From NCBI GenBank assembly GCA_004431415.1, contig QPMI01000615.1, positions 161,542-225,541 on the forward strand: 64,000 nt of DNA. The letters are read 5' to 3'. Below are positions 38,301 to 64,000 of the stretch, in pieces; position 1 is the first letter of the stretch, and each line of letters starts with the position of its first letter. The notes under the pieces were generated by a model. That model made no database searches and was not told the origin of the DNA. It was given only the letters and a program-made list of their open reading frames with translations. The translations under genes and the position numbers were made by a program. The stretch is from Cyanophora paradoxa CCMP329. Lineage: Eukaryota > Plantae > Glaucophyta.

Positions 38301-38329
38301 GCGTGATGATCTCTTGTCATTCAATTTAA

Positions 38330-41300: not shown

Positions 41301-42750
41301 CCGGGATCTTTTCCTGGCTTCATGATCAATTCTCATGATCATCATGAACACTGCATGCATGGGTGCTCAGATCCTCACTGCGAGCCAAATTGAAACTCGG
41401 GGCCCACATTGCATACGCCCGCGAGCATGCTGTTGGGGGTTCTCGAGGGCGCTGGATTTGATTATGAAGTCGGTTGAAGACAGATCCGAGGCTGCGCTGC
41501 CCTGCAACTTGGCACAAATGAAGTGTTGGCAATTGGGCCCACTATTGCTTGGCGAGGCACCAGCACCTTTTCAGCGCTTGCCACTATTAAAATCAAATCT
41601 AGCGCCTTTGATATAGTCCAGGTACGCTTCTCCAGTCAGTGAAAAGGCCGGGATCTTTTCCTGGCTTCATGATCAATTCTCATGATCATCATGAACACTG
41701 CATGCATGGGTGCTCAGATCCTCACTGCGAGCCAAATTGAAACTCGGGGCCCACATTGCATACGCCCGCGAGCATGCTGTTGGGGGTTCTCGAGGGCGCT
41801 GGATTTGATTATGAAGTCGGTTGAAGACAGATCCGAGGCTGCGCTGCCCTGCAACTTGGCACAAATGAAGTGTTGGCAATTGGGGCCCACTATTGCTTGG
41901 CGAGGCACCAGCACCTTTTCAGCGCTTGCCACTATTAAAATCAAATCTAGCGCCTTTGATATAGTCCAGGTACGCTTCTCCAGTCAGTGAAAAGGCCGGG
42001 ATCTTTTCCTGGCTTCATGATCAATTCTCATGATCATCATGAACACTGCATGCATGGGTGCTCAGATCCTCACTGCGAGCCAAATTGAAACTCGGGGCCC
42101 ACATTGCATACGCCCGCGAGCATGCTGTTGGGGGTTCTCGAGGGCGCTGGATTTGATTATGAAGTCGGTTGAAGACAGATCCGAGGCTGCGCTGCCCTGC
42201 AACTTGGCACAAATGAAGTGTTGGCAATTGGGGCCCACTATTGCTTGGCGAGGCACCAGCACCTTTTCAGCGCTTGCCACTATTAAAATCAAATCTAGCG
42301 CCTTTGATATAGTCCAGGTACGCTTCTCCAGTCAGTGAAAAGGCCGGGATCTTTTCCTGGCTTCATGATCAATTCTCATGATCATCATGAACACTGCATG
42401 CATGGGTGCTCAGATCCTCACTGCGAGCCAAATTGAAACTCGGGGCCCATATTGCATACGCCCGCGAGCATGCTGTTGGGGGTTCTCGAGGGCGCTGGAT
42501 TTGATTATGAAGTCGGTTGAAGACAGATCCGAGGCTGCGCTGCCCTGCAACTTGGCACAAATGAAGTGTTGGCAATTGGGGCCCACTATTGCTTGGTGAG
42601 GTACAAGCACCTTTTCAGCGCTTGCCACTATCAAAATCAATTCTAGCGTTTTTGATATAGCCTAGATACGCTTCTCCAGTCAGTGAAAAGGCCGGGATCT
42701 TTGCTGGGCCTCATGATCATGATCAGTGATCATGATCATCATGAGCACTA
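38330..42750. repeat. Tandem array of ~348-bp units (12 full + ~0.6 partial)
   Basis: ACAGATCCGAGG starts at 38330, 38678, 39032, 39379, 39727, 40075, 40423, 40785, 41132, 41480, 41827, 42175 and 42523. Confidence 0.98.
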
Positions 42751-45700
42751 CACCGCCTGGCGACCCGCGCCACCGCCCGCCGCGCCTCCGCTCCGCCCCG
42801 CGAGCCGCGCCGCCACCCCTGAGCCCCGCCCCGTCCGACGAGCCGCGTCGCCGCCCGACGCGTTTCCGCCCCGCCCCGCGAGCCGCGGCGCCGCTCGCCG
42901 CGCCCCCGCCCCGCCCGGCGACCCGCGCCGCCGCCCGCAGCGCCTCCGACCTGCCCGGCGGGCCGCGCCTCCGCCCGCCGCGCCTCCGCCCCGCCCCGCG
43001 AGCCGCGGCGCCGCCCGCCGCGCCTCCGCCCCGCCCCGCGAGCCGCGCCTCCGCCCGCCACGCCTCCGCCCTGCCCGGCGAGCCGCGCCTCCGCTCGCCG
43101 CGCCTCCACCCCGTGCGGCGAGCCGCGCCTCCGCTCGCCGCGCCTCCGCCCCGCCCTGCGAGCCGCGTCTCCGCCCGCCGCGCCCCCGCCCCGCCCGCGA
43201 GCTGCGCCGCCACCCGCTGAGCCCCCGCCCTGCCCGGAAAGCCGAGTCGCTGCCCGACGCGCCTCCGCCCCGTCCGGCGAGCCGCGTCGCCGCCCGCCGA
43301 GCCTCCGTCCCGCCCCGCGAGCTGCGCCGCCGCCCCCCGCGCCCCCGCCCCGCCCAGTGAGCCGCGCCGCCACCCTGCCCGGAGAGCCGCGCTCGCCGCG
43401 TCTCCCACCTGGCCGGAGGGAGCTGTGCCACCACCCGCTGTCTCGCTGAACCCGCCAGGCAAGTTAAGCGGGGGGAGAGAGGGGGGAGGGAGGGAGAGCC
43501 GTGGGCGAGGGGAGGGCATACTCCGAGGGCGCTTCGGCGCGGCGGCGGCAGGGCTCTTGCGGCCGCGGGGTGCACAGGCAGCCGCGAGGGCGGGCGCGGG
43601 GCGCTTGTCGTTGTGCGGCGCGGCGGGGGCGGCGGGGCGCTCGAAGATCCTCTCCCGCGGCAGCGGGACGCCCCGAAAATTCAAAATCCTCGAGAGCTGC
43701 GAGGGCGTCAGCAGCAGGCAGGCCGGGCTGTGCCGGGCAGGGCGCTCGGCACGGCGCACCGTCTCTGCGGGGCGGGGCGAAAGCGACGGGGCGGGGCGGG
43801 GCGACGGCGACGGGCCGGGCGAAGCGACAGCGCCGGGGCGGGCCGGGGAGCCGGCGGGGCTGCACGGGGCTGCACGGGGCGTGCGCCCCGGGCCGCCGCC
43901 CGCCGATCCTACGCCCCGCCGTGCAATCCATGCTGCCGCCCTCCGCTCCCTCCGACCATCGCCCCGGGACTCGATCATCCTGCGCGACAGGAGCGCCTTG
44001 TCAGCGACGCGTACGCACACAGACCGCTCAACTCACCTCGTCTAGGCCTGAGCCTCACCAAGCTGTGGAAGAGGGGTCCAGAATTCGGAGCCTGGAGACG
44101 GCGCGCGCGATCCAGCGCCTGGAACGCAAGCAAGAATCGTGAGACATGCGTTCGCGCGCCGCTGACGCAAAGCTATGGTCCGGTGGCCCACCCCCGGCGA
44201 TGGCGACGCGCTCGGCAGGGCGCGCTCGCCGCCAGCGGCGTGCCGGCACTCCATCGCCCGCTACGAAGGAGAGATCAACAGCGAGAAGCGTGCGGCAGTT
44301 CGCCTGTCCCCCCGTTCCCGGCCAGGCGGCCGCCGCACCTTGGCTCGGCTTGGGCGCAGGGCCAACCAACTGGGCCGACGGGGCTCACCGCCGGCGATCC
44401 CTGCGAAATCGAGTGAGCTGTACGTCACGCGTGGAACGCGGAGGGCACGGCATAGACGCACGTCGTCGGTTTGTGGGAGGAAGGCAGGCCGTGAACGCAG
44501 CGCCGCACGGAAACACGGCCACGCCAGGGCATAGACATGCAGCTGCGAGAACACGGGCCACATGCGCCTAGCTATAGCTAACGAAAGGGCCGCGCGCCGC
44601 ATCTGCGAGCTTCCGCCAACGTGCTCGGCACCGCGGCCGAGCGAGCTGCGAAGGAGCATGGGACCGCTCAGGCTTCCTCGGAAAGCTGAGCCGAAGGGCG
44701 TCCTCAAGCATCCTCGATCGATATCGCTGTTGGTGTCGCTGCCGCTTTCGCCCAACAGCTGTGTACCCCGAAATCCGCGGCCTTGCACTTTGAAGAGCAC
44801 GCAGGGCAAGAACTGGCTGCGGCCTCCAGCACGGGACGCAATGCAATCTCGGTGCGTCGGCGCTGGGCTCTCCACCGCAGCGCATCCTGGTCTCCCTTAC
44901 TCCACAATTTCAAACAGGTCAAACGGAGTCCGCACAGCTGCCGCGAACTTGACGAGCCTCGAGCGCGAACGACGTTCGAAGGTGCCTACTTGCATCCTCT
45001 CGCGTCCCCCGCCTGTCGCCGGCCTGATTTCAAACGCAGAGCGCTGCCCAGGGCGGCGGGCGCCCGCTCGTGGCGAAGAGCGCTCGTGTACGCGTCGTTC
45101 TTGCCTCTTCAAGCGCCCTTGATCTGCATTCTTAGCCCGGCCGCCGCCGCCAAGTGTTCCTTCTTTTGGTCGGCTCGCGCAGAAAGGAGAAGGCGGCTGC
45201 CGATGCGAAGCAAGGTGCTTTTTCGTTTCATCTCCTTTGCCCCAATCCCTCATTCCGCTGGCGGTCCAGGGAACGGGGTGACTGGCCCGCGCGAGCAGAG
45301 CACCACCATCCAGTTCGCCTAGCGTCTTCTCCCGCAGGCCAGGTGCTCGCTCTTGTTTCCGCTACTCTCGCGTTGATGTTTTTGTGACGCCGGCCGCGTG
45401 CGCAGCGGAGCGGGTGCCGTTCTCGGACGCGTGGCTTCTGGACGGCCGTGGCCTCGGAGTTCTTGTGCTTGCGGCCGCTGGGGCGCAGGTGCGGCAGGTG
45501 CGGTCGTTTGCCGGCGCGCATTCTTCTCTTCTTTCGGTTGACGCTCCGAGCTCAGCGAGCGCTGCGCCGTCGCGGCGACCGCGTTCCGGGCGCTCTCAAT
45601 CTCGGTGTGGGCGCTCGGCGACAGGTGCGGTCTGTTTATTGGCGCGCGTTCTCTCTTCTTTTGATTGACATTCCTCTCCGTGCGCAGCGAGCGCTCTGCC

Positions 45701-46030
45701 TTCGACGTCGGGCACGGGCAAGGGATGCTGGAAGCGGGGACGGGCCTCCTGCTCTCTCCTTGCTGCGGTGCGCAGACGTCCCCTTGCTTCCACTTCTCTC
45801 TTTATGCTAGGAGCCCGCTTATCCTGATGCGCGCAGCGCAGCGAGCGCGGCGACGTTCCGCAGCGAGTGCGGCGAGGGCGCATTCTGCCTGGGCCGGAGG
45901 CGGGCTGCTGGCGATCGGCTGGGCATGCGCAGGCGGCGGACGATGCCGCAGGCAGGACAGCAGTACTACCTGCTGTTCGGCAGCTGATTGCAGTTAAAAC
46001 GTTAGTTTTCCTTTTCTCGGCAACTAGCGC
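42715..46030. repeat. Right arm of the long internal inverted repeat, including a C-rich minisatellite at 42750-43400
   Basis: Reverse complement of ~35330-38300. Confidence 0.95.
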
Positions 46031-46632
46031 GGGGGACGACGCCGCTTGCAGGTCATTGCGTATTGTGTAAAGCCCTTACAGCCTAAGTTGCAGGCGGGGC
46101 AGATTGGGGCAGATGAGCTCGAGGGCGCCCGCGCACGATCGGCCACGAGGCCGCTAGCTGTTTCACAGTGTGCGCACATCTACACGAGGGCGCCGCGCGG
46201 GCTCGGGATTGGCCCCACGAGGGCGCTGAGCTGTGTGCGCATGCGCACATGTACTACGGTACGACCTAGGGGCGCCGGCGCCACGCGTACGCGTGCCCCG
46301 TCGAGCTTGACGACCGACTCTCTCTCTCGGCGAGCTCGAGCCGCGTCGAGCTCAGGCCCATAGCAACGAGCTCGACGACCGTCGACCGGTACCGGCCACG
46401 CTGCTGGCTATAGCTACGTATACGCCGGCGCAGTGCGTCCAGCTGCGTCGAGCGGCGCAGTGCGTCAAACTTCGAGTGCGTCGAGCGACGCAGTTTCGTG
46501 AAACTTGGCGCACTGCTTGAAACTGCGTGGAGATTTCGAGCAGTGCTTCATTTCCGACGCAATGCTTGAAATTCCCACGCAATGCTTGAAATTTCCGACG
46601 CAATGCGTGGGTGAGCCAAAAGTGCCGGGGTA

Positions 46633-47347
46633 GTGCTGGCGGCGCAGGAGGCGGCGGGCACCGTGGTGGCCATCGCGGCGGTGGCAGGGGCGGCTACCAG
46701 AGCGGCGGTGGAGGCGGCGGCCAAGGCGGGACGGGATCTAACGCCACCCTCCTCGGCAATCCCGCCCCGATGCAGCGCCCGACTGGCCCCGTTGTTGACG
46801 CGCCGTCTTCGCGCCCGACTGGCCCCGTTGTTGACGCGCCGTCTTCGCGCCCGGCTGGCCCCGTCACTGACGCGCTGCCTTCGCGCCCGACTGGCTCCGT
46901 TGCTGACGCGCCGTCTCCGCGCCCGACCGGCCCATCGCTAACGCGCCGCCCCCGAACCCTCGCCCGACTGACCACGGAGACGCCGTGCAGTCCGGTGGTC
47001 CTGACTCGGGCCGGGAGACTGAGGCTACGACGGACAGCCTGGCCATGGTACCGATCGCTCCGGTGCAAACTGTCCCGATCACGCCGACGCAGCCCTCGCA
47101 TCGGACATCGCGCACTTCGTTCGGGACGTCAACGCCACGACGGCGACGCAGCCGGTAACGTCGGCGGCGGAGAGGACGGCCCCCGTCCCCGTCGCCATCC
47201 CCGTCGCTGAACCCGCGTCGCCGTCCCCTCGTCGACTCACGCGACCGGCCCGTCGTCGCCGGCCCGTCTGACTTGTCGACAGAGATGGAAACGGGAAGCC
47301 GTACTGCGGCCGAGTCCCGTGTTCCAATTCGGTGTGCGCAGCCCGGC
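46633..47347 (+). repeat. ~720-bp direct duplication, copy 2
   Basis: Repeats 34033-34752, then continues into unique retrotransposon sequence. Confidence 0.95.
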
Positions 47348-50300
47348 GGGGCGTCACTGCCGGCAGTATCCGCGACCTCATCAACGCTGGCCTCCGCCGG
47401 CACGACCACACTCGCATGTCCGCCGCCTTGGCTCCCGTCACGTCCAAGAAAACCCCGCTCTTCACTCGAAACTTTGGCCGTATGCACCGCCCGCGCCCGA
47501 ACGCCATCAATCCCGTCGCCCGCGTCGCAGTCACGAGGTCGCTCACCTTCGCGGCCGCCCCCTCGGCGAAGAGCACGAACTCCGACGCTGACTCTGTGCG
47601 GGAGCCGAAGACCCGGACGTACTGCGCCCTGGGGGACCCCGTCACAGAGTCGCCGATGGACACTGCACTCGGCCCGCTAACCTCCAAATCGAGCACCGAC
47701 TCCCCCGCAGCCACCTCGCAGCAGGAGGGGAACGTCTCGAAGGAAGTGGGCGGCCGACCCCGAACTACAAGGCCCGCCCGCCAAGATGCCCGAAATCGAC
47801 TCGCTACCGGCGGTCGAGGGCTGCGAGTCCTTGGTACCCCTTTGCACTGACTGGCTCGACAACGTTGCTTACAACATGCACACTCGCCGTGTTAACAACC
47901 GCATGCACGTCGACGGCATCCAGTGCACTGACTGGCTTCGTGATGGCATCCCTTCGAGCGACCAGCGCCAGATCCACGCGCGTACCATCCTTTACTGCCC
48001 CGCCCTCCAGATGCTCACGACGTACCTCGAGCCGAAGGGCCCCGGTGTCTGCTGGGCTCGCGTCCGCAACGCTATCGATGCGGAAGGCGACTCGGAGGAG
48101 GCGCGCGCGCACCGCTTCCCCAAGCCCCACGACAACATGTACCCCGTCTTCACGCAGGCCTCCAATTACCGTACCGCGGTATTCACGGAGGATGCGCACA
48201 TGCCTCGCCGTCGGACCTGTCTTTCGCCAACGAGACGTGTGCTGACTGCCACCCCCATGTCGTCGGCCGCCAGGAGAATGGTACCCTTGTTGCCCGCCCC
48301 ATTCCCTCGGCACACCGTCGTGACGCGCCCAATGACGGACTTCGTACTGCTCACTCCGCGCTCATCGCTGCGCTTGAAAGCCTCCCTACGTCGCACCCCG
48401 TTCGTGACCCGACCAGGGAGATGGAGTTCTTTGTGATCGCCCGCGACATCTCCGGACACGCGAAGAACGGGCGGTTCCCGATCCCGCCGGCGCTCGACGT
48501 GAACCCCGGCATCCCGTGCGCTGACGGCACTCACGCTCACCACAGCCACCCGCATTGGCACTTGCTGGCGACCCGCCGCTCATCAACCCGAAAGGCCACA
48601 GTGAGCACAAGCGTCTGAATGCGGCCGTCACACGCATCATTGCAGACACGGCCACTGAGGATGACGTGACAACGTTGCGCACGTGGATCGCAATCGCCCG
48701 TGAGACGACGACTATCGCGGCAATTAACACTAACATCTCGAACACCAACGAGCAGCTTCGCCGGCCTACCGGGGCGCTGAGGGCGAGCAGCTGTTACACT
48801 TGGTTGAAATGGCAGCGATGGCCATCACGAACACGGGCGCCCCGCCGCCTCGCACGCGGCAGGCTGCGGCCAACCACGTCACGAGTGTACTGCGTAAGGA
48901 GCTCGAGGCATTCGATGTTGACACTACGGTTCAGGCAATCGTCAACGCTCTGTGCGCCCGTCGTGTCTTCACTTTCACCGACGGCGCCATGGACACAACC
49001 GACGCGCCGCCTGCACCTACGACAACGCTGACGCTCCCAGGAGCTGCTGTCGTCGAGTCCCTCCTGAACCGTGTCAAGACGTCCTTCACCGACGCGCAGA
49101 ACCGCAGCCCAACATTCATGCGCCCCAACCGACGAACGGCCGCTGTCAATTACGTTGAGAGCACACTCCGCACGTACCTCCGTGGCTACGACGTCGAGTC
49201 TACGATCCTACTTCTCGTCTACATTCTCGAGCGCGAGGGTGAGCTACGGTTCGCCTCAGGCCCTGACGCGACTTCGGCAAAGGCTGCTGACGCCTACTCT
49301 CGTTTCGTCGCGGCAAACGCTCCGACCGACCCCGTCGCCGGACCCAGCTCTGTCGCGACGGCAGAGGGCCTCGCCCCTGAGGACAAGACGCCAATCGTCC
49401 CGCCGACCACGCCCACTCCACCCGCGCCCGCCGTACTGCGGCCCAAGGCGTCGGAGGACAGGGCTGACAATGACCCCATCAACCGCAACCGGAAGTTGCG
49501 CGAGATGCTGATGGACATTGCGGAAGACTCGATCACGCTCATCGCTCGTCGCCACCAGGCAGCGGGGAGGTATGAGCGCGAGGGTGGAGACCGCGTCTTC
49601 GCCTCTCGCACGGTCGAGAAGATCATGGTCAGTGTTGGGGGACAGCAAATTCTTCTCTTCCTGTCGCCAGTCGACATGCCTGCACCGTGCCACACGTGCA
49701 GCATCGGCCCGATGGCTCACCCGTCATCGTGAACCACCGGCTCCGTGCATCAGTGATCAGCATTGCGCACCGCTACTACGAGTACATCGACTCGACCACG
49801 GGCAACACGGTGACAATGACTAACGTCGAGCTTCAGGAGCACTGCCGCCTCTGCACAACGCCGCCGTACATGGAGTTCGTCCGCAATTGCCCCGTACCGT
49901 CGCCAACCTCACGCCAGCGCACGCCGTACCCGAGTACTCTGCGACCTGACGATGCACCGGCGGACATCACGCTCGACGCTCTGTACGGAGTGACGATGGA
50001 AATGAAGACGCTCTTCCTGCGGATTATCGGTCTGTTAATGGATATCACCCACAGGGAACGACGTCTTTGACGGGAACGACGACTGGCCTCGGGTCGCTGA
50101 CATCTTCCTTAACGTCGACGTCAGCCCCTTCACCGTCCGCGCCAGCACCTCCGGCCTGGCGTTCGCGACGCGAGTACTGGACCGATAGGCACTCGGCCAA
50201 TCATTCTCGCCCCGGGAGTTGTCAACACCTCTGGGCAGGACACGTCCCGACTCGCGCGAACGACTGTGAACGCGTCGCTTCCCGTCTGCTTGTCGGCACC

Positions 50301-53300
50301 GGCGTTCTACCATGCTCACGCGTTAATGCACCCCGTCGATGAGCCGAACACGCGCCTCGGCCCGACACCAACTGATCTTCCGCCCTACCCGGTGCCTGAG
50401 ACCACGGTCGCTGCAGCTGGGGGAGTGAGCCGCAAGTTGGCGTCGATTTACGTCGCTGCCGTTCTACACGACTGGCCGGCTCGACAGCGGGACAAGATTA
50501 AGCCGCATCTCACTCTCCGAACCAACGACGTCGACATGGAGTACTTGCGACTCGCCGCCGAGAACGCGCGACTTCGGGACCCGACGCAGTTTTCGGCGAG
50601 GTACCTCGAAGTCCACAACGTGTTGACAGACATCCTTCGTCGCCGCACGCCTGGAACGCCGTCCCCGACCACTCCGCCGACAAGCACGCGCAGCTGCTGG
50701 CCGACGAACAGCTCGCACGTGAACTGCAGGCTCGCCTCGACGCCGAAGCTGCCAAGGGAGAGGACCCGGTGCAGGCCGCGGCGCAAGCCCCCTACTTGCA
50801 GGCTGCAATCGGTGGTATTGCTCGTGGCCGCACCATGGACGCCCGTCGCCGTACTGCGGCAGCACAGGCTCCACCGCGCCAATCGGCGAGGCACGGGGGA
50901 ACGGTCAGGGGCCGCGGCCGCGCGCTCCCGATTCATACCAGCCGGCCCCAGACCCCGGGCAACCCTCACTACCACGACGACGACATGACGTGCCCAACGG
51001 CACCGGTGACACCGCCGACCGACGCCCGGAGCCCCCGGCCCCGCGGAACGACCCACCCCCTGCGCCCGAGGTGACGGCCTCGTCGACGGACACTCCGGAC
51101 GCCCAGCCCGTTGCACCCGCGACGACGACTCCGGACGCCCAGCCCGTTGCACCCGTGACGACGACTCCGGTGACCCCGACGCCCGCTCTCGAGACGCCGG
51201 TCTCGTCGACGGCCGCTCGAGATGCTTCGCCCATCGCACCGGCGATGGCGACCTCGCTGACGACCCCGCACAGCGTCCCGTCCCCCACGGCCGTGGCTGC
51301 GGTCTCGACGGCCCCGTCGCCTGCGCCTGAGCTACTGGCCCCGTCCGACGCCCCGCCAGCCCGGCCACGACTGTGACGGCGGCCCCGCCGCAGAGCCCGG
51401 CCCAACCCCCGATGCTGCCGATCCCGTCACTTCACCCGACTACACTGCACCGACCGACGCGTCGATGCCTGACTCGACGACTGCCGACTCGTCGGGCACT
51501 GAGAGGACCGAGGACGTGCCCATGGGCGACCCGCGCGTTTCGAGGGGAATCATCGTCGACACGCCGACCTTGCCGAGCCCTCACGACGACCGTGACAGTC
51601 CTCCTGACACCGACGAAGACACGTCCAGCGACTCGGAGCCCGAGATCAAGGACGTGGCCGCCGACCTTGGACACCGCCACGCCTGGACGATCCTTCGCCT
51701 CAAGCCCGTGGTGCACAACCAGCTGCGTGCGTACCTGGACACGCCGCGACGCTTCATGGTCACAACGACGACGACGGATTGGCGCAAGACCCCTGAGACG
51801 CCGACCCTCTTCGCCGCCAGCGAGCTCACGAGCTGCATGCACCTCGCAGCTGCCCGCAGCAACACGCCTACTGGGCAACCGTTGCTGGGTACTCGCCCGA
51901 GTGACCAGGCTCACTACCTCCTTCAACATCTGACCGAATTCCGCTCCGTCATCCACGTCATCATGCGCCTCGCGCGGGCTCAGCCCTTCGCGCCTGGGGA
52001 GACGGCGACCACGTGGCCTCACCCGAACGACCCGCTCGCCGATGTCCTCGGACGGCCAGAGATGCTGGAGCTGTTTGGTTTGACACCGACAGAGTTCACT
52101 CTTGTACACCAGTCCAAGACTCCAGTCGTACCGTGCATCCTTCAGGTGGCTGTCAACCTTGCCCGCAATCTCCGGACGCTGCACTACGACGTGGAGATGA
52201 CGGAGAGCGATGAACGGTTCTTGAACTTCGACAAGATCACGAACACGGCGACGCGCCTTGCAACAATCAGGCAACTGGTCCAAACTGTCAAGTTCACGGC
52301 CCCGCTCACAGGACCTGACGACATCTATCTGTCTACGCTTCGACACGGTTCACCGCCGCCCGACATCGCCTTGTCGATGCGTTCGACGGCCCTGGCGCGG
52401 GCGTGGGACATCGCTGCATACTTCGACCATTACAAGTGGGACGAGACGCGCGACCGCTACGGGGATAGCCGATTTGCTCACCTCTACGACGTTCGTGACC
52501 CAGCACCGAGCTCCGACCGTCCATGGCCGACGAGTCACGCGCCGTTGCTGTCAATGCTCACCGAGCAAGTCGAGAACGTACTCCGCCTCGTCAACATCAC
52601 AGCCGACGTCGAGGGCCCCGGCAACTTCCTGCGCCGTTACTACACGTCCCGTTTCAACCCGAAATCCGACGCGAACCCGGCTACGAACCAGCGGGCGACC
52701 GCCGAGCTCGCGGAGGAGATCCGGCTGAACAGCCAGTTAGCAGTGGTCGCGGCACGCGATGTCCATCGTCTGCGCACGCCCCCCGTCAGCGAGTCCGACC
52801 TACACCACTGTCTTCGGCACGGACTGTCCCGTCACCGCTCCGGCGTCCTCCCCTCAAATTTCACGAACGTCGTCGCCGCGTCTGTCACGGAGACGACTGC
52901 GCTGGCAAGGCTCGCCGAGCTACATGACACCACCGTTGTCGCGATGTCAATCACTACGTTCATGCACAAGCGTCAACTCGCCAAGAAGGGCAAACCGATC
53001 CGTCTCGAATCGCGACTGCACGCCCCCGTCTTCACCCCGAAGCAGCCCGAGCCAGCTGTCGAGCTCTATTACAACTCTGACCGTTACATAATGGTGCACC
53101 CTGAAGAGGCGGCGCTCCTGGCGTGCAAAACTGCGTGGCGCTCCCATATCCTCCAGCTGACTCTCGAGGCCATGCGTCGCGCGTACAAGCTCGAGACGGA
53201 GTCAAGCACTCGTACTGCGAGCAAGCTTGCTTTCGGCCTCGTCGCTCGACTCGACACTGCACTTAGCAAGGCTACGACCACCCAGCGCTTGGCGGTAACA

Positions 53301-56300
53301 CGGGCCTTCCTCCTGGACGCCGAGCATCGATTGAATCTGTTCTACTGCATGCTTTACCCGCGCTACCGCGATCACCTACTCCCTGTCCTCCCCAGTCCGA
53401 TGGTACCCGTCACCGACCCTCTCGCCGTCCCGGTCCCACGGCCCCTGAGCGCGACGTTGACGAGTACGGATACCTGACACAGTGGACGTCGGACGGCATC
53501 GACATCTTGCCTCGCGTTCCTGACTGGGATTCCCTCGTTGGACTTGTCGACGACATGAGCAAGGACACTTTCTGGAACTCCAACACGTACTTCGGGCTTC
53601 GCGCCCGCGCTATGGTCTACGGAACAGAGCGCAAGCGCCCCCGCGAGAAGCGACCGAATGACGAGAAGTTGCAGAAGAAGGAGCGCAAGGCCGCCCGGCT
53701 CACTCCCGAGGAGGTCGACTCCATCATCTCCAGAATTTTGAGCGAACTCCACACTGTTCCTTTCAAGGAGGTGCTACTCTCGGAGAACGCTGACATTCCT
53801 GACGTCTATTTCTGGGCCTTCCTCAACGAGGAATGGGCGAAGGGCTTCACGGTCGTCGACGGCGCTGGCTACCAGCACGGAGTGTGGCCGGATCTGAGCG
53901 GCGTGATGGTCCGACGGGAACCGCGACCTGATTCGACGGAGAACGAGCGCGACACGTTCTATGCGGGTTTTGGACGGCGCAACAATCACATCAACGGGGA
54001 ATTATTCGCCCAAACGATCAACGACTGGTACCCAATCCGTCTCCACAATCCTCGCCCCCACTCCCGTACGGCATGCGCACATACAGCCCGAGGAGACGCG
54101 AGCTGGAGGTGACTTCCTACCTCTGGATACTGATCCGGGACGGGATACCTCCTATCACATCTTCATGACACCGCTTCTCTTCACGAACACGGACTTCCTG
54201 GCCACAGCGTACTGCAAAACGATCCAGGAACATGGGCGACACGCGCCCCACATCTTCGCCGTCGCGGCTCACATCCTCGGAGGCCAGCCCCGTTCGGACA
54301 GACGGCTGATCTGACCGAGGAGCTCACTGTGGAGGACGGGCACAGACCGGAGGAGCTCCCGGAGCCGCCGCGGTCGAAGAGCTGGAGGGAATCCCGACTC
54401 GGGACCCACCCCAGTTCATCCCGCCACCACGACAAAGAAGTACATGCACGTCCTAGTGAGGTCCACATGCCATACGTGCTACTCGGCGACTCTGGTCTCG
54501 AGGCATTTCTCCGGCGCGTCCCGTACATGCGCCCATTCCTCATGAAGATGCACGTACGCTGGTCGAACTTCTCGCGAGCACTCAGTCGTGTCCTACGCTA
54601 CGGCGTCGGCCCGGCACCTACCCGTACCGCGCCGGTGCTCCCGGCCATGGCGAACTCAGCCAGCACAACCGCGCGGGCCTGCCCTTCCGATCGTTCCTGA
54701 TCACGGCCGCCGACGAGTTCCACCCGGCCAACAAGTATGCCGACTACTTCGACTGCATCTACGACGAGGACAACACGCGCACCTCCGTGACTCCGCTTCA
54801 CGTCAAGATGTCGAACGATGCTTCTACGAGATTGCCATGCCCGACGACCTCAACGCGCCGCCCATGACTCTTACGCCGGCCAATGCTGACCTGTGCGGCC
54901 CTCGAATCGTCCGATTCACGCACGTTGCACCGGCCGGACCCAGCCGCGGTGCCCCCAACACGATCCAGAACCGCTCGCACATCACTATCTTCGACGCGAA
55001 CAACCGGAACACCTGGCAGCAGATCATCGCGGGCACGAGGAAACCCCCAAACGAGGCGGCGGGGCCGCACCCGTGCGGCCCCGACCCCAAGTACTTCCCG
55101 GTGTCCGTCAATGACTACACTGGCCCTGGGGGCGTCGTCGTGTCTCTGCGTCGTCGCGGGCCCACGGGCACCGCGCCTGCAACGCCCCCGTCGTCCACCA
55201 GGTCCTGGGGTTCCCGCTTTCGGTACACACTTGGGTGTACGGAATCGCAGCGTACCTGGCGGCGGCAGTCAAGCTGCACGGTGCCTTGTCGTTCTTCCTC
55301 GAGCCCCTACCGGGGGAACTCGGGAACATCATCATCGACTACGTTCGTAGCCACGAGGATGAGCTGCACTTCCGCTTCACGGCTTCAGGCGAAGTGGCGC
55401 GCAGTGCCAAACTCGACAAATGGTACGAGGTCGAGTACCCTGACTGCGAACGCGTCGACCCGGCACATTTAATCACAGCCTTCGAATCCCTACTGCACAA
55501 GGCAACCAACGACTGGTTGGCGGTCCAGATCAAGCACGAGACACCCCCGGCGGCTCGCGAAGATGTCGACATGGATCGAAACCACTGCTGGCCCGTAGCA
55601 TTCCGACTCCCGGATGGAGTCATCAACGCACTCAACGCCCAAGTCCGGGGCGCTGACTTCGATCCCACGAACGATCCGTCACACCCGCATCGTCCCAGTG
55701 TCTATGACGTCAACGCGAGCGCAGTGCGCAACGCTATTATGGATTTCGAACAGCGATACGCCGACATACACGAGCAATTCCGTCACGCCGAATATGGCAA
55801 CTTCACATTCGATCCATTCTACAATGAATTCGGCGCCGCCATCTTCAGTCGCGAACCGCAGGCGCGGGCGCTACTCCACGGTTGGTTGGAACAATTCGTT
55901 TACAATCACGCCACCGTCGACGCGGCGACGAGGCGGCCCATCACGTTCACTAGCCGCGAAGCCTACCGGGCGGTACAGATCGTCGACGTCCTCCCCTGCG
56001 TCACTCCCTGGGCGATCCGGACAACGACAGCCTCCTTCGTCAGATCCCCACATTTACATTGGTCACGGCCCCACGGCGCGCCCGTCGACCCGTACGAAGG
56101 CCGCACGCGCTTCACTAACATCATGAACTACATCACTACGACGAAGGCAGAGGAGTCGCGCGCGTACATTGGGACCCGCGCCTCGACGGCAAGATCAAGC
56201 TCGTGGGCACGGACGAGTACATTCGTCGGAACCCTGGGATTGCGCGCAAGCCCTTTGTCCGACCCTTCGTCGTCTGGTCGACCGACTTCAAGGATCTGCG

Positions 56301-57600
56301 CACCAACGAGCCGACGGGACTGGCACGCTTCGGTCACATCCAGGGTGTTGTCTTCAAGCCATCTGGCAGTAACAGGCCTCCGCGTCGTAGTCCTACGGGG
56401 ACCGAGACGACGGGAACCTCTGACGGCGACGACTCCAGCTCGGACAGTGGTGGCTCCACCGCCGAGTCCGTAGCTCCATCGGAGACCCCGTCGGCCGGGA
56501 CGCCGAGCCTAGCCTCGCGCGTGCAGTCGTCCGCGTTCGCCCCCCACGGCCTCCTTGGACCGCTCACACGGCAGCACACGTACACGATCGCATACAACGA
56601 CCTCACTAATCCCAGGACGTCGACGGATCTCACGATGGGCTGCTGGCTCCTCTACTCTGGACGGGACCGGACTACGAGCGGATCACGTCCGCGCGACACC
56701 GTGCCTTCGAGGACCCTGAATTCGCTGCCAGTTATCACTTGTACGACTGGTCGCCGCTTCAGCGGTCTCACCAACTCAACGCCCACGCAATCCTGGAGAC
56801 GCTCCACGAGATCGAGAACTTTCGGTGGATTTCACAACCTCTCAGGGCCTGTCAGCCGACCTCGCTTTCACTCGCGCCTTGTTCACTCGGGCGGCCTTCA
56901 TCCTCAATTCAATCGGCCTCGCGGCGTGGGACGTGGTCCTCCACAATGACTTCCGTAGTCATGACGCTCAACGGACACGTTTCTACGAGCGGCACGTACT
57001 CCAACGCGACACGCGCCTCCGCCACGCTTGGCCCCAACTCGTCAAATATCTCCGGGCGTCTCTCTCGCGCCACCGCGAAGCCATCCCGTTCCGATCCCCC
57101 GGAGAGCCTGGCTACCGGCCGGCTGAACGACGGGATGGCGCAGCGGGGACCGAAGTTGACGCGATCAACGAGATTCACTATGGCTGGCCCAGCAACCGCC
57201 ACCTCAACAAGCTCGCAAACGCCGACTGCAAGCCCATCCTTGGCGTCGGATACTTTTCAGCCACAATGCGCAATCACCGGCCCCGCTGCGTCTGTCGGCA
57301 GCTCCCTGCAGGGCACGCCCATTCGCCGCGACGGACGTCCTCATGAACGTGCACAGGCGGACAACCACGCGGAAGCGACTCGCCTCAAGCGGACGGCACC
57401 GCTCCCGCCAGCCAGCGTCATCTCCGGTTCGACACCGTGCACACCGTATGAGCAGAGCTACCTCGCCTCGCTTCGCGTCTGCGCGGCACGCATGTTGGGA
57501 TTTGACGACGTCGAGGACCCCTTGACGTTCCCCTCTTCGGCGACGGCGGCCCGTCAGTACCACACCCATTGCGCGAATGACGGACACGAACCGCACGCTC
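47332..57600 (+). CDS. ~10-kb accessory coding region of unknown function between gag and protease (chain of overlapping + strand ORFs)
   Basis: Globular-looking ORFs abut or overlap by single frameshifts: 47332-47850, 47786-48436, 48800-49732, 49687-50070, 50266-50988, 51465-53477 (670 aa), 53507-54112, 55235-56473 and 56825-57346. No introns or AT-rich gaps are evident. Confidence 0.75.
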
Positions 57601-60600
57601 AGAGAGCGCATCAACGACGGCCGAATCTGCGTCAACTTGCATATCGCCGCTATCGATCACCGACGACAAGTCCTTCAATACCTCCTCACCAAGGCATTGG
57701 TGGATACAGGAGCCGCTGCGGACGTACTCGACGGCAGTATCGCCGACAAACTGCCAGGCCTTCGCTACAGCAACGCTCCGCGCGTGCACCTCACCGGCTT
57801 TGGAACGGACATGACTGCCTATGCGCGCATCGCATTCATTGCAATTAAGGTTGGTCGGTCACAATTCCGCGGAAGGTCCTCGTCGTCGCGCCTGGTCTCA
57901 TGGGCAACACTCCAATGCTACTCGGCCTCACAACGCTGGTGCGCTCAACGCTCACATCGTGCTCGACCCAGCAAATTGGGGAATGACGATCACGTCGCCT
58001 GACTCCTCGGATGGCGAACGATTCCACGTCCCTTTTCGGCTGCGGGCCAGCACGACGGCGGCGTTCTGGTCCGATTGGCGAAGGACATCACTGTACGGCC
58101 GGGTGAATCGCTCGTTCGATGTTACATGCCACAAACGACTTCGAACACGACTCTCGGCGCACCGGAAGTCCTCCTCACTCCGCCACCACTCCTCCTCGAC
58201 GACGACGGCTTCGACGGAGCCGACGAAGTCGAATTCTTGGTGCCATACCAAATTCACCGCAACCCAGCACACGGCACGTTTTTCGTGCAGATCTGCAACC
58301 TCACAGGCGGCCTGTCCGCCTGCGAGCCGGAACTGTGATTGCGGAGACTGAATTCGGGACTTGGCGGAGTCCGAATTCCGTCCACACGAGAATGTCGAGA
58401 CCTACCCCAAGGGTGTTACAGCTCCTGGACACCTCAACAACAACTGACATTCCGATCTCTTCCGTAGCCGCGCAAATCTACGAGAACTTCAAGCCTGTGT
58501 CGTACCCCGACGCTCGCAACCACGGCGCTACATCTCCCGAGCCCGACGCCTCTACCCGGAGGTCTACCACCGACGACCGCCCGAACCCAACTGCAAGGAG
58601 GGCGAGGCGGCGCATGTTGGCTCCGTCGATGCTGCTGCCGACATCCCGCTATCCCACGAGGCCAGCGAGCGTCTCATGTCGTACGTCGCACGTGTCGTCA
58701 CCCCCTTACACTGCTCGAACCGGCGATCACTTCAACGACAAGGAGCTCATGGAGCTGGCCAGTTTCTTCGAGCCTCACTTCGCCCGCTTCGACTCCGAGC
58801 CGATGCTGGTTGGCCCCGCAGTCGGCCCCACGGTGCCCATCGCGTCCGTCAATGCCGACGCTCGAATGGAGCCCCGTCGAGTGACACTGCGCCTCCTACA
58901 AAGCCATCGCCCGAGACCATCAAGGCGATGGTGGACGCCCTGTTGAAACCATCGGAGTCGAACCCCGACGCCCTTCCCGAGGATCGCACTCAACTCCAGA
59001 ACCTTCTCACGCAACGCCAGCACTGCTTCGCCCAGAACATCAATCCACGCGAGCTCCTGAAGTACAAGCACAGCATCCGACTTCTGCCCGGCGTCCCCGC
59101 CAAGCACCTCCCGCTGTACACCGTCCCTCGCCGGCTCTCTCCGCCTGCGGAGAAGGCTGCGAAGGCGGAAATCGAGAAGCTGCTACGCGACGGTCTCATC
59201 GAGCCTTCGCAGCTGGTTTCGGCAGCCCCGTGGTGCTGGCACCGAAGAAGGATGGCACGATGCGATTCTGCGTCGACTACAGAAGCTCAATTCCCTCACG
59301 GAACGCGATGTCTTCCCGTTGCCACGCATTGAGGACCAATTGGAGCGCCTACAGGGTGCGTCCACGTTCTCGACTGGCGACGCAACGTCGGGTTTCTGGC
59401 AGTTGGAACTCGACGAGGAGTCACGTGACCTGACGACATTCATCGTCCCCTGGGGAATGTACAGGTGGAAAGTGACCCCTTTTGGTATCACGAACGGCCC
59501 AGCGGCGTTCTGTCGAGCCGTGACGTCAATTTTGGGCAACCTTTTGTCCACCTGCGTCGTGGCGTACGTCGATGACCTCACGGTCCACTCGCCGAACGTC
59601 AAACAACACCTTCTCGACCTGGAGGCCTTCTTCGCTGCGATCGACCGCGGTAACCTCAAACTCAAGCCCAGCAAATGTCGTTTCATGGTGCGGGAAGTCG
59701 AGCTGCTCGGATTCCGTGTCAGCAGCGACGGCATTCGCATGGACCCCAAGAAGGTTGAGATCATCTCCAAGATCACGGCGAACGAACTCCAGACTGTCGA
59801 GCAACTCCGCAGTTTCCTCGGCCTCACGGGCTTCTACCGGCGCTTCGTACAGAGTTACGCGCGACGGGAACTTTCCCTGCGAGACCTCCTTACGGACGCA
59901 CTACGAGCCGACCGGCTCAACTTGGTGTGGAATGACGAGGCTCTCGCTGCGTTGGACGACCTCAAGAAGGCGATGTGCGAGGACATTGTGCTGATGCTGC
60001 CCGACTTCACGAAGCCGTTCATCATTTACACGGACTGGAGCAAACGGGCCATGGGAGCGGTGCTCATGCAGGAGGACAAGGACGGCCGCGAGCGCCCGAT
60101 CGCATTCATCAGTCGTACTCTGACAAACATGGAGCGCAAGTACCAATCACCAACGGAGGGCGAATGCATTGCGGTACTCTGGGCGGTTAAGGTCTGGCAC
60201 CACTACTTCGTCTGCGGCCACCCGTTCACGATCCGCACGGATCATTCGGCGTTGCAATGGTGAAGACACAGGAGCTGGCGAACAACAAGACGCTTGGGCG
60301 CGCGGCCATCGCCCTCAACCACTACAACTACGTATACACTATCGAGTACCGCAACGGGCGGTCGAACGTCGTTGCGGACTGCTGCTCTCGCCTTGCGGAG
60401 ACGCACGCAGTGTACAAGCCTGGCGGCGCTGACGGCACTGACATCACGACTTCGATACCAGACGGCGCTCACGGGTTCGGTGTGCCCGATGCGGGAGACT
60501 ACGACGATCCACGCGAACTCTACCGCGTCGCCATCCACCGCACCTCCTCGGCCCTGCAACATACTCTGGACGGGCCGGCGTGGATCCCTACTGGGATAGA

Positions 60601-63272
60601 CGCCGCGCCACCACGCGACCCGAGCACCTTGCCCCGGCGCCACCGCGCGAGACCGCGACGACCCTCAGACTTCACGGCGACGTCCAAGGTCGTTGACGCC
60701 CGACACTCAGCGAGTGCGTGACATCGTCGAGAACGGCGGCCTGGAGACGTGGAGTCCCAGATCACGCTGGAACGGCTCCACGAGAACGGCGCCCTCTCTG
60801 CCCCCGACGTCGTACCCATGGAAGTTGACACGCCTGCACCGGCCGCAGCGGCAGACGAGGCGGCGCGACGGCCCCTCCTGCACGGCGACGCCGCGGGTGA
60901 CGAACCTCGAGCATACACTCGACGGCGCGGCCTGGCTACCGGCGAGGGTCGCCGCCGCCGACTTCAAGTTCAAGGACAGGAGAGCTCCGCTGACGGGCTT
61001 CAAGCTCGAGGACGGGAGAGCTCGGCCCGGAGGCCTCGGTCTCAGTCACCGGAAGGAGGGGAGGGGGTACAGACGAGGAGAGCGAGCCGTCGCTACCCCG
61101 TCCATCTTTGCGAGGCTTCGATCGTCAAGCAGCTGACCGCACGCTACGCGACTCTGTGGAACGGGCACGACGCGGCCCTCACGGATGACGGCCAATCTTC
61201 GCAGTCCTCGGCGTCCGACGGAACGTCGAACTCAAGACGGAGCACGGCTTGGAGTGTCCCGCGCCAATACCAGCGACGGCTTGAAAAGGACTACGCTGAC
61301 CGCCTCGCCAGTGATCGCGACAGACGTTCGCGTGCGGCCCGAGATCTGCACGAAGCCTCGCGGGAAAGGACGGCGACGACGCTCGAACGGCGACGCCAAC
61401 TGGCAGAGATGGCCGTACCCCGTCTGAGATCGACGCGCTCGTACCCCTGCCCTCTGTTCGGAACCGAACCCGGAGGAGCGGCGCAGACGGGACAATCCCG
61501 CAAGGCGCTGAACGCCAAGGCATGCCCCGTACCGCGGGTGAAGCCTCCCAAGGGCAAGAATTCACGGCAGTCTCGATATGCCATTGCGCCCCCGTCGCAT
61601 CTCGACGTTGCTGACGAGGAAGAGTACATGCACTTCTGCAGCAAGAACGTGACTCGGTCGTCCGCGACCTGATCCCATTCTAGCAGCGCTATCGCCCGCT
61701 GGACGAAGGTGAAGGCGCCCAGAATGAGCCGACACACGTTCGCTTGCCGCGTGGCACCGTTGTCATGGACACCTGGAGCGAGGGCCCCCGCCCCCTCGTT
61801 GACGTTCCTCCGCCACGACGATCCGTGAACTTGTTTCCGATGGGACCGCGGTCATCATGGCTCAGGCTCGTGACCCTCTTTGCCAGATGGTGTCGCACTT
61901 CTTCGCGAGAAGGAGAACCTGGCGCGCTGTCACTCCCACTACACTGCTGGTGAACGTGACCCGGAGGTGCTTGGGAGCTGCATTCTCTGCAAGTCTGCAC
62001 GCGATCGCTTCGCTCGTGAAGCACTCAGTACACGATCGATGAGCAAGATACCGTACTGCGGTTGCCCTTGCTCCCCACTATGCGGCCTCAGATCGTTGTA
62101 CCCCAGAGTGGCGGGAGAAGATTGTTCACGCTTACCACGATGACTGGGCTCACCGTGGTGCCCCCATTGTTGCTCGGCGCATCGCCTCACGGTTTTGGTG
62201 GCCGGGCATGACGACTGCTGTCCATCGCTACGTGAAGACGTGCCGACACTGTCAGTTTGCCAAGGCTCACAAGAAGCCGAAGTCACAATTCACTGTGATC
62301 GAGTCTGAGCATCCTGGCGACTTGCGTCAAGCCGATCACTTCCTATGGCGCCTCTGAGAACGGTCGACTTCACCGTTTCACACTTGTGCACATTGACGTC
62401 GACGCTTTTACCAAGTACCCTGAGATTTTGATGCTGACGGAGGCTGATGGTCGTGCCTGTGAGTGGCTGCACAAACTGTGTACGCGAATCACGGCCCTTG
62501 CAAGCGGTATCTCACGGATAACGCCAAGGTCTTCACGCCTACTAGTCTCTGGGGCAAATTCTGGACTCGCCAGGGTACTCGGTTGATTTACGCTCCCACG
62601 TCCACCAGTCACGAACGGCGGTGCTGAGCGGCTTGGTGGCATTTACAAGCGCTTGGTGTATGCTCTTTGCGATGAGAACGGGAGGACAATTCCCATTGGC
62701 CTTTCTATCATTATCGCGTGCTCTTCGCTCTCCGGACCACGATTCACGCTGCCACTGGTTTTTCACCCGCCGCTCTGCACTTTGGACGAGAATTGATGTT
62801 GCCTGGCGATCTTCGTCTCGACCTCACCCTGCGCGAACCTCACGAAGATCCCGTTTCTCTCTACGATTACGCTTGTCGGTCGCTCGAGCGCCCGCGACCA
62901 AATCTCTGCCGTCCGAGAACACCGCAAACTTTACAACAAGAAGTTGCTTCGCTATGGCACTGGCCGTGAGCTGCATCGTGTTTTCAAGCCTGGTGACAAA
63001 GTGTTGTGCTGGATTATCAGCGCGAAGACAGTAACGTCAAGCGCACTGGGCCTCGCAATGGTTGGACTGGCCCTTACACTGTCACTGAGGTTCACTCTCA
63101 CGGTCTTTTGTACACTGTCCGAGGCGATGACACTTCACTGGTGTATCGCTCGCGCGAGGTTCTCATGCACGTTGATCTCATGATCGCTTTTCACGAGCGT
63201 TCCTGCCAATGTTCTCGCTCCCCGCAAAGCCGTCGCCCTCGCAAGGCCCCCGTGCCTGTGCGCCGATCATGA
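57577..63272 (+). CDS. pol: Pol: aspartic protease, reverse transcriptase, RNase H and integrase (frameshifted in this assembly)
   Basis: PR ALVDTGAAADVL (~57695). RT PKKDGTMRFCVDYR, DATSGFWQL, TPFGITNGPA, AYVDDL (~59230-59850). RH IIYTDWSKRAMGAVL..PTEGEC..IRTDHSAL..NVVADCCSR. IN HAYHDDWAHRG..FWWPGM..YVKTCRHCQ (~62080-62265), DAFTKY, NGGAER, TGFSPAALHFGR and GPY motif WTGPYTV. Confidence 0.93.
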
Positions 63273-63840: not shown

Positions 63841-64000
63841 GCAGCTCGCGGGCGGGACGGGAGGCGCTTCGGGCGGCAGCAGGGCTATCCGGGCGGGGCG
63901 GGCGGCGGGCGGCGGCGCGTCTCGACGGGCAGGGCGGAGGCGCGTTCTGCCGCGGGGGCGACGCCGGCGCAGCTCGCAGGGCGGGGCGCCGCGGCGGAGG
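63841..64000. repeat. GC-rich minisatellite, right part of the LTR element's target
   Basis: Continues the G-rich unit seen at 31292-31470. Confidence 0.75.

Follow-up and report, generated by a model that had tools for sequence, protein, structure and literature searches.

The glaucophyte Cyanophora paradoxa carries a Ty3/gypsy LTR retrotransposon of about 19.8 kb, whose first open reading frame (ORF1) encodes Gag, a large region X and a protease in one open frame of about 4,520 aa, tail included. It is a known kind of element, a giant gypsy, with an unrecognised cargo, and its closest counterparts are Burro and Ogre. From its sequence, it is probably a young multi-copy element in which ORF1 combines a likely Gag with orphan X and the protease, pol is likely reached by a -1 frameshift, and X is accessory.

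Boundaries, domains and copies of the element

The element was analysed in a window of 64,000 nucleotides, the whole stretch of DNA under study. Its outer parts and the block nested within it are placed as follows.

31467..31470, no strand: target-site duplication GCAG, left copy; the insertion is in a GC-rich satellite of ~40 bp
31471..31768, + strand: 5' LTR, 298 bp, TG...CA, spanned by one contig of exactly 298 nt
31769..31790, + strand: primer-binding position, whose start is not TGG
32151..34749, + strand: Gag-like start of ORF1, with a helical region, two CCHC knuckles and a Gly-rich then Pro/Thr linker; 3 contig gaps only
34029..34749, + strand: duplicated segment flanking the nested block, copy 1, 721 bp
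34750..46628, no strand: nested block with terminal inverted repeats, internal inverted arms and a 348-bp tandem array
46629..47344, + strand: duplicated segment, copy 2
59000..60300, + strand: reverse transcriptase (RT) and RNase H (Pfam RVT_1, RT_RNaseH)
60300..61800, + strand: low-complexity linker from RNase H to integrase, ~450-500 aa
61800..63348, + strand: integrase (H2C2 finger and core)
63550..63840, + strand: 3' LTR
63841..63844, no strand: target-site duplication GCAG, right copy

The two LTRs end in TG...CA and differ by one substitution and single-base gaps over 299 columns. The 4-bp GCAG duplication that flanks them is within the 4-6 bp expected for Ty3/gypsy. The element spans 32,370 bp of the window, of which 19,775 bp remain when the nested block is taken out together with one of the two duplicate segments (716/721 bp), in agreement with the LTR of ~298 bp and the size of ~19.8 kb given by a sequence-only reading of this DNA. 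Inside the LTR we found no self-complement of at least 7 nt to the primer-binding position, and the window contains no tRNA genes. Only a short purine run lies upstream of the 3' LTR.

The order protease, RT, RNase H, integrase is that of Ty3/gypsy elements. The best of 12 PDB matches of the RT is the Ty3 RT 4OL8 (E 5.5e-42), and its matches outside Cyanophora are gypsy-type Pol proteins (34-44%). LTRs, target-site duplication, domain order, RT type and size thus all identify a giant Ty3/gypsy element, as had been proposed. No chromodomain was matched by Pfam in the window ORFs or in P0133, P0142, P0143 and P0018, and the linker between RNase H and integrase, the place of an archaeal-type RNase H in Ogre/Tat, has no Pfam match. 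The RT tree was a quick version with 77 of 128 proteins, in which long branches meet at the base and no reference lineage is named. No published description of the lineage was found in the openly accessible literature, repeat databases (Repbase, GyDB, Dfam) aside; to this extent the suggestion of a new cargo-carrying lineage is supported in part.

The copies, examined through short-read contigs and public gene models, are young and number roughly 9-15. In run X2, region X is present at 13-15x single-copy depth, and gag and pol at 15x each.

Continuity of ORF1 and the change of frame after the protease

The nested block (34750..46628) is specific to the present copy and is no part of the retrotransposon: where short-read contigs link Gag to X, it is missing. 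Of the duplicated segments, copy 1 is the longer by 5 bases. Together with the contigs and gene model P0122, this confirms that restoring a base at ~47342 joins the Gag frame to X. The window lacks about 100 single bases through assembly losses (104 indel rows when short-read contigs are compared with it, 12 of them listed), hence its many short ORFs. Between the start of Gag and the protease, X included, contig gap counts explain all the changes of frame.

ORF1 starts at the ATG at 32151 or 32210. Its first CCHC knuckle is matched by Pfam zf-CCHC with E 0.0016, below the cut-off, and the second was read by eye; the Gag region matched no capsid family. P0122, from another copy, is identical to the Gag region over 764/764 residues, reads from Gag into X (196/196 identical over the junction), and covers a further 1,015 aa, beginning in the middle of X and ending in the protease, with 1001/1002 identity. 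X itself (47345-57600, + strand) offers about 3,450 codon steps up to the protease motif with zero stops. GC at the three codon positions is 0.58-0.66, 0.39-0.59 and 0.71-0.78 in all seven long pieces of X, as in gag and RT.

The contig-minus-window lengths equal the frame changes required in five intervals: 2 in 47345-47807, 4 in 47808-49948, 5 in 49919-51067, 11 in 51069-54901 and 1 in 54813-55289, about six of these changes being placed from window ORFs rather than from a gene model. The phase given by the contigs was reproduced by a simple codon model in 9 of 12 intervals; natural proteins settled two of the misses, and the remaining one is the frameshift site described below. X sequence is carried by 13 of the 14 contigs with family A gene models, and at least one copy seems to be without ~7 kb of X: a joint between 47804 and 54872 occurs in one RNA-like run, with a 27-nt side, and P0122 makes the same jump. 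For the RNA-like runs X15 and X17 the RNA status is a guess, no listed run is recorded as RNA, and the contigs carry neither level nor strand of transcripts. A spliced host gene is visible in run X17.

These data bear out the presence of ~3,400 codons of uncharacterised protein between Gag and protease and in frame with both. They do not extend to the single Gag-X-Pol ORF of ~6,000 aa that had been envisaged: with the short-read contigs the frame stays open from Gag through X to the protease, but pol lies in the -1 frame after it. The features around this change are listed below.

57600..58036, + strand: aspartic protease (LVDTGA), in the Gag frame
58030..58036, + strand: slippery heptamer, C CCU UUU when read in the protease frame
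58037..58338, + strand: Gag-frame tail of ORF1, ~100 codons to an inferred stop, overlapping the pol frame
58043..58073, + strand: predicted hairpin after a 6-nt spacer, -18.3 kcal/mol
58057..59000, + strand: start of the pol frame, a conserved post-protease domain and linker at the position of the dUTPase-like domain of other gypsy elements

One frame change, between 58036 and 58057, i.e. within 21 nt starting at the heptamer end, is unaccounted for by assembly errors. Over 55557-58994 the contig shows 19 gaps with a net of +17, and natural proteins require 18 losses and 1 extra base, the protease-to-pol change not counted. One -1 change is left over both in this interval and in 54872-60863 (net +18), which come from different runs. 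Beyond the site, two other copies keep the protease frame of the window for 84/84 residues, and the tail of the Gag frame continues in one model each of families B (E 3e-5) and C (E 3e-7), while a family D model ends soon after the same PF dipeptide. The pol-frame domain begins by 58057, as judged from the family E alignment and from family B (52% identity, E 5e-9). In families B and C, too, pol is offset by -1; for families B to F, conservation of the heptamer is judged from the PF dipeptide and from the frames of gene models that contain many false introns.

Programmed -1 signals combine a heptamer of the form X XXY YYZ, to which C CCU UUU conforms, with a stable structure 5-9 nt downstream. 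The hairpin predicted here has a z of -2.76 on 35 nt and ranks 7th of 3,160 windows, and is not significant on windows of 60-101 nt. C_CCU_UUU is the slippery site of West Nile virus (PMC11797035). RT, RNase H and integrase are therefore likely reached by a predicted programmed -1 ribosomal frameshift after the protease, and a product of ~6,200 aa would exist only as a frameshift fusion.

A continuous Gag-X-Pol ORF of ~6,200 aa, with the interruption behind the protease counted among the assembly errors, is very unlikely. The ~100 single-base errors of the window speak for it, and the 12 listed of the 104 indel rows settle the site neither way; yet in two intervals, taken from different runs, a single -1 change is left over once contig phase is accounted for, the window agrees with two other copies at the site, the offset recurs in families B and C, and a canonical heptamer with a predicted hairpin lies precisely there. 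Keeping the two frames, pol could instead be expressed by splicing, as in Ogre, or by transcriptional slippage or internal initiation. Ogre splices a subset of its transcripts from GAG-PROT to RT-RH-INT (PMC6317226), and contigs drop minority RNA forms. Such a route is nevertheless improbable, as the frames overlap with no spacer, an RNA-like contig crosses the site without a skip at a length that agrees with DNA contigs, and the heptamer is in the protease register with the change confined to the 21 nt that follow it.

Conservation of region X and searches for its relatives

In addition to the predicted frameshift, the element is distinguished by X, whose modules are arranged as follows.

47345..50950, + strand: first third, ~1,200 aa, in frame, with Cys/His-rich patches; family scans blank
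50950..51600, + strand: Pro/Thr/Ala linker with a 36-bp repeat
51600..53450, + strand: central module, ~600 aa; 26-30% identity to family C over 52248-53408
53490..56050, + strand: modules common to families B and C from ~54090 on, 22-31% identity
56560..57150, + strand: best-conserved module, a predicted three-helix bundle, 30-39% over three families

X is collinear among families A, B and C at 22-39% identity, and its aromatic motifs are kept over all three; no homologue of the first third was seen in families other than A. The family C RT is not linked to the family C X. Because two further families carry it conserved and in the same order, X is a coding cargo and not a nested element. Among variants of X within the family, 10 of 20 are synonymous, with P ranging from 0.014 to 0.087 by choice of null. 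The slot between knuckle and protease holds unrelated sequence in families E (~800 aa) and D (~2,450 aa). X showed no similarity to the family D insert, its modules none to one another, and the Gag region of family A none to that of family D.

No termini or target-site duplication belonging to X itself were found. It is hardly credible that X is a nested element in its own right, or a neutral filler held open by high GC: GC-rich DNA does hold long shadow ORFs and one copy apparently does without much of X, but X is in frame with Gag and protease, has the depth of gag and pol and a coding-type codon-position GC, and shares its aromatic motifs over three families. Its presence in other copies and its lack of own ends remove two grounds on which the sequence-only reading could have failed.

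With Pfam, run on 44 ORFs of the window and on 15 natural proteins, X had no accepted match; EAD10, DUF4632 and Emfourin fell below threshold and were rejected. X had no match in PHROGs or NCBIfam, none in PDB profile searches with three alignments, and no relatives in viral or metagenome contigs; Rfam gave nothing. A phmmer search of 1.84 billion representatives with the central module returned 5 matches, all from Cyanophora, as were the 5 and 2 matches of word-based homologue searches, the latter restricted to lengths 132-457. One ESM Atlas search gave none, and the best of another, 0.78, is within the chance range.

AlphaFold2 with three-family alignments modelled the last module at pLDDT 46, with only a helical core, and modules 54090-56050, for which the family C sequence was used, at pLDDT 30. 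Foldseek with the last-module model gave no E below 0.001 against BFVD and PDB. A likeness to the CNOT3/Not5 N-terminal bundle (best VIA-align Z 6.8) was rejected as generic, being shared with many unrelated three-helix bundles. The structure and profile checks that had been called for thus yielded no match and low-confidence models, and such blank fold searches do not demonstrate a new fold. As for globular domains separated by Pro/Thr linkers, modules and Pro/Thr/Ser linkers are present; globularity is plausible, one short helical bundle being partly confident.

X could also be a block captured from an unsampled virus or host pathway, enzymatic or acting in cell entry or exit like an Env or movement protein, with the element infectious in glaucophytes. 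X is large, modular and conserved, and Burro has an in-frame Env in the same slot (PMC6431247); weak Atlas leads of the last module (0.76-0.77) point to caulimovirus coat and Retrotrans_gag clusters, in a range that shuffled proteins reach. We consider this origin unlikely. None of 10 proteins tested has a hydrophobic stretch above Kyte-Doolittle 2.0, no weak hydrophobic peak is present in all three families, no Env-like membrane anchor was found, and viral contigs, metagenome contigs, PHROGs and BFVD hold no relatives. The models of X are too poor to rule on an ectodomain.

Proposed expression and comparison with other elements

With a -1 frameshift behind the protease, most ribosomes would make Gag-X-protease, and a minority would slip at C CCU UUU to make a Gag-X-PR-RT-RH-IN protein of ~6,200 aa. 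Because slippage would follow the protease, X and the protease would be made at the level of capsid, far above RT. The protease may then cut X at its Pro/Thr/Ser linkers into several proteins. These products could quite possibly be accessory proteins without enzymatic activity, directed at the host or the particle, although we put this forward tentatively. They might counter silencing, or aid the packaging and routing of an RNA of ~19.5 kb. Host repeats are heavily CpG-methylated (PMC12344493). X appears to lie outside the core copying machinery, as sister families place shorter or unrelated sequence in its slot.

Yeast Ty3 differs in its size of ~5.4 kb, its +1 shift and a protease placed after the shift; it resembles the Cyanophora element in its RT-RNase H, the nearest solved (PDB 4OL8, 7Q5B), in the order PR-RT-RH-IN, in its short LTRs and in two-frame expression by frameshifting, as predicted for the Cyanophora element. 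Viruses of the Rous sarcoma virus type encode the protease at the end of Gag and make it at Gag level. Avian alpharetroviruses such as Rous sarcoma virus use a -1 gag-pol frameshift (PMC5009743), but these vertebrate retroviruses have an envelope and a small Gag and carry no cargo, so that the likeness is an analogy of layout only.

Burro/GYPSM1 of planarians likewise has a CCHC Gag, then an in-frame cargo of thousands of residues, then the protease, and a domain between protease and RT (PMC6431247). Its ORF1 encodes 4,873-5,140 aa, against ~4,520 aa here, and its PR-RT-RH-IN appears to lie in the same ORF as the cargo (PMC6431247), whereas pol of the Cyanophora element is in the -1 frame. The Burro cargo contains MATH, BIR, ankyrin, BCL2, SUMO-like and Env domains (PMC6431247); Pfam found no MATH, BIR, ankyrin, BCL2 or Env domain in the Cyanophora element, where very remote forms are possible. 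Burro exceeds 30 kb, with long LTRs and thousands of copies (PMC6431247), compared with 19.8 kb, 298-bp LTRs and about a dozen copies. About 96% of the internal region of the Cyanophora element is coding, and its total of ~6,200 aa exceeds Burro ORF1. Ogre, of the plant Tat group, is also large, with one ORF for GAG-PROT and another for RT-RH-INT, but owes its size to LTRs of 1.9-6.5 kb and to separate extra ORFs (PMC6317226, PMC6431247). Its ORFs are parted by a spliced region of ~274 bp (PMC6317226, PMC6431247), whereas those of the Cyanophora element overlap by ~100 codons, starting from the slippery heptamer, and its cargo lies within ORF1.

Transcript length, RT processivity and packaging are considered to hold retrotransposons to a size near 10 kb (PMC6431247). 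In the accessible part of the same source, in-frame cargo from Gag to protease is described for planarian Burro only. The Cyanophora element appears to be a further, separate instance from a distant eukaryote; its LTRs are tiny, almost all of it is coding, and its total coding sequence is longer. The position of its frameshift predicts the stoichiometry, with cargo and protease at Gag level and RT and integrase rare. In a more far-reaching and rather unlikely version, this glaucophyte Ty3/gypsy would follow an RNA-virus-like polyprotein strategy, in which moving the -1 frameshift behind the protease sets the cargo at capsid level. Its slot would deliver up to ~3,400 aa of new-fold proteins, serving an enlarged or exported particle or disarming silencing, and would hold undescribed families and functions.

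The lineage seems to have been overlooked so far as fragmentary hypothetical genes. LTRs are given as 1.77% of the genome in the genome paper, and the words gypsy and retrotransposon are absent from its accessible part (PMC6704402). C. paradoxa can be grown axenically (PMC12344493). With three diverged versions of an orphan protein of ~2,000 aa in such an alga, the structure and role of the cargo can therefore be studied directly.

Identity, copies and surroundings of the element

Its termini, domain order and reverse transcriptase (RT) mark this element from the glaucophyte alga Cyanophora paradoxa as a Ty3/gypsy retrotransposon, and a giant one, as the sequence-only reading had proposed. The LTRs begin with TG and end with CA, differ from each other by one substitution and single-base gaps, and are adjoined on both outer sides by GCAG. 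The element measures 19,775 bp when the nested block and one copy of the duplicated segment are left out.

Features of the element (window positions)
31471-31768: 5' LTR, from self-comparison
34029-34749: duplicated segment (721 bp), left of the nested block
34750-46628: nested block, non-coding, with terminal inverted repeats
35336-37849 and 43621-46028: internal inverted arms of the nested block
46629-47344: duplicated segment (716 bp), right of the nested block
63550-63840: 3' LTR, from self-comparison

A Pfam scan of 44 ORFs recovered aspartic protease, RT, RNase H and integrase zinc finger in gypsy order, together with a sub-threshold zinc knuckle, and gave no curated-level match in X, the orphan coding region (47345 to about 57600) between the Gag side and the protease. 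The primer-binding position (31769-31790) begins TCCTCGCC, not TGG, and no complement of it was found in the LTR. RNase H and integrase are set apart by a long linker of low complexity at 60300-61800, and the window copy carries six additional in-frame bases near 60300. In families B and D, two of the other C. paradoxa gypsy families (B-E), this linker is similarly long and unrelated in sequence.

The best relatives of the RT are EukProt proteins of C. paradoxa, the closest being 99-100% identical once the frame errors of the window are allowed for, and 88-89% of X words are present in 14 DNA-type or unlabelled sequencing runs of one organism. Contig depth, which is not a copy number, was 15 (gag), 13-15 (X) and 15 (pol) times single-copy depth in run X2, 14 times for gag in run X4, and 9-11 times in run X1. 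Gene models of family A (the window element and its near-identical copies) lie on 14 contigs, and 13 of these carry X sequence. Depth and gene models together indicate about a dozen near-identical copies, most of them with X, in line with the proposal that X belongs to the element. One contig of run X15, RNA-like by its contigs, joins 47804 to 54872, and P0122, a gene model from another family A copy, makes the identical jump; 7 kb of X may be missing from at least one copy, a possible internal deletion derivative.

The nested block contains an array of 12.6 copies of a 348-bp unit, no transposase was found in it, and its flanks are a direct duplication of about 720 bp of the host element rather than a short TSD. 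A contig of the RNA-like run X17 (34224-35384) leads from the Gag linker into the block at a depth of 95, versus 15 for gag, and skips 70 nt at 34736-34805 with GT...AG ends. This suggests that the left junction is real and that a spliced chimeric transcript is made. The element lies in a GC-rich satellite of about 40 bp (flanks 31300-31470 and 63841-64000), which recurs at 3800-5260, 37860-38270 and 42750-43375; several LTR-flank contigs carry other satellite-like letters, a weak hint of targeted insertion into the satellite. The host genes at 19600-25000 and 28100-28570 are Tudor-SN, which lies on the minus strand and appears spliced in run X17, a gene with a ribosomal L1 domain, and one for a CCCH zinc finger.

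The Gag-X-protease frame and the -1 offset of pol

Assembly errors account for the frameshifts of the window between Gag, X and protease. In four runs, short-read contigs span nearly all of X, and they exceed the window in length by their gap count. At the Gag-X join, the contigs lead from a loose end at 46629 on into Gag, and a contig of 3,136 nt that begins at 34224 extends beyond 34752 to the opening bases of X. P0122 crosses this junction in frame (196/196 identical), which bears out the prediction that the Gag frame runs directly into X, and covers a stretch of 1,015 aa that begins in mid-X and reaches the protease (1001/1002 identity). A codon-model path over 47332-63300 is stop-free at three of five penalties and, with the remaining two, stop-free as far as 61681. 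Path and contigs agree in phase in 9 of 12 intervals, and two of the three misses were resolved by frame-aware alignment with natural proteins, gaps being filled by window ORFs; for successive intervals, this alignment reproduces the numbers from the contigs, 2, 4, 5, 11 and 1. About six frame changes were positioned from ORFs alone. The first frame is Gag-X-protease, and arithmetic on frame and contig counts gives an ORF1 of about 4,520 aa, of which X makes up about 3,430. The single Gag-X-Pol polyprotein first envisaged thus holds as far as the protease, but RT-RNase H-integrase is offset by -1 right after it.

This one frame change is not an assembly error. A run X2 contig over 55557-58994 shows 19 gaps, net +17, with both ends in the same frame. 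Natural proteins require 12 lost bases up to the protease end; beyond it they require six lost bases and one extra base. As these account for all 19 events and the net 17, the protease-to-pol change is left over. The identical single remainder, and no skip, is seen in an RNA-like contig (54872-60863, net +18). The change maps to 58036-58057, with VPF as the last protease residues and a pol-frame domain that aligns with family E from 58057 and is 52% identical to that of family B. Two other copies track the protease frame of the window for 84/84 residues past the site. VPF is kept in family B; family D has IPF, and a family D model stops about 30 residues on. The models of families B and C run on in a Gag-frame tail homologous to that of family A, in which the end of the Gag frame is projected near 58338.

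Positions 58030-58036 read C CCT TTT, a heptamer in phase with the codons of the protease. A predicted hairpin six bases downstream (-18.3 kcal/mol; z -2.76 on 35 nt; two of 200 shuffles as good) ranks 7th of 3,160 windows along the element and has no excess stability on 60-101 nt windows. Pol would be reached by -1 ribosomal frameshifting, yielding a putative fusion of about 6,200 aa. A gag-pol shift usually sits before the protease. According to the available text of the sources, gag-pol shifts of the -1 type occur widely among animal LTR elements (PMC5009743), and C CCT TTT is the slippery sequence of West Nile virus (PMC11797035).

Conservation and possible role of X

Comparison between families shows that X is conserved cargo. 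Its modules occur in families B and C in the same order as in family A; the family B RT is 74-75% identical to that of family A, and the family C RT is not linked to its X. For 52248-53408, which only family C shares, identity is 26-30%; with both families B and C it amounts to 22-31% at about 54090-56050 and to 30-39% at 56560-57150. Codon-position GC of all seven long X pieces resembles that of gag and RT, and a weak signal comes from the 20 within-family variants in X, of which half are synonymous. No match to the first third of X was found in the other families; collection-wide homologue searches were made with later parts of X. A motif at 50694-50750, which we take to resemble a ubiquitin-interacting MIU/UIM helix, has one similar counterpart in family D, none being found in families B or C.

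For X, searches of Pfam, PHROGs, NCBIfam, PDB, ESM Atlas and viral and metagenome contigs gave no match to a sequence family, to a solved structure or to a protein from outside Cyanophora, and no Env-like membrane anchor was found in it. Modelling gave at best a low-confidence bundle of three helices, whose structural matches are generic. The linkers between its modules, anticipated as Pro/Thr-rich, are indeed rich in Pro, Thr and Ser. Lying before the shift, X would be made at Gag amount, and the protease, in the same frame, could cut it. Sister families do with different content. On these grounds of position and layout, we tentatively favour the reading that X comprises non-enzymatic accessory proteins made at capsid level and acting on host or particle. 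The host methylates 32% of CpG, repeats preferentially (available text of PMC12344493), which would provide a motive for counter-silencing by X, and an RNA of about 19.5 kb would provide one for packaging help.

Lineage, cargo slot and related giant elements

In a quick RT-RNase H tree, computed without reference lineages and with long branches meeting at the base, all 38 Cyanophora rows cluster together (SH-aLRT 100), separate from 39 other gypsy-type rows; families A and B are sisters and E comes next. From knuckle to protease, the slot of family A measures about 3,700 aa, counting X together with the linker on the Gag side; in family D (P0142, a model of 4,924 aa) it is about 2,450 aa long and in family E (P0166) about 800 aa. 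The gene-model sizes are minima, since such models may skip sequence. No similarity to X was found in the slots of families D and E. The differing sizes and unrelated content indicate that the slot is expandable and its content family-specific. The C. paradoxa gene models P0142, P0143, P0166 and P0167, of other gypsy families, are 2,536-4,924 aa long, with unrelated inserts before the protease.

As far as the available texts describe them, Burro likewise has in-frame cargo ahead of the protease, but its cargo domains and size are not matched here (layout, domains and size compared; PMC6431247), while the GAG-PROT / RT-RH-INT split recalls Ogre, whose spliced spacer is absent (PMC6317226). We found no description of the Cyanophora lineage in the literature; a Repbase or Dfam entry may exist. 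In the parts available, the C. paradoxa genome paper gives no more on LTRs than their share of the genome, 1.77% (PMC6704402), the EpiLTR preprint does not mention Cyanophora (10.64898/2026.05.21.726589), and an Ectocarpus survey reports LTR elements up to 14.5 kb (PMC12477816). The Cyanophora element is a giant that is nearly all coding, with thousands of residues of conserved orphan protein, and its putative frameshift site offers a sharp, testable expression signal.
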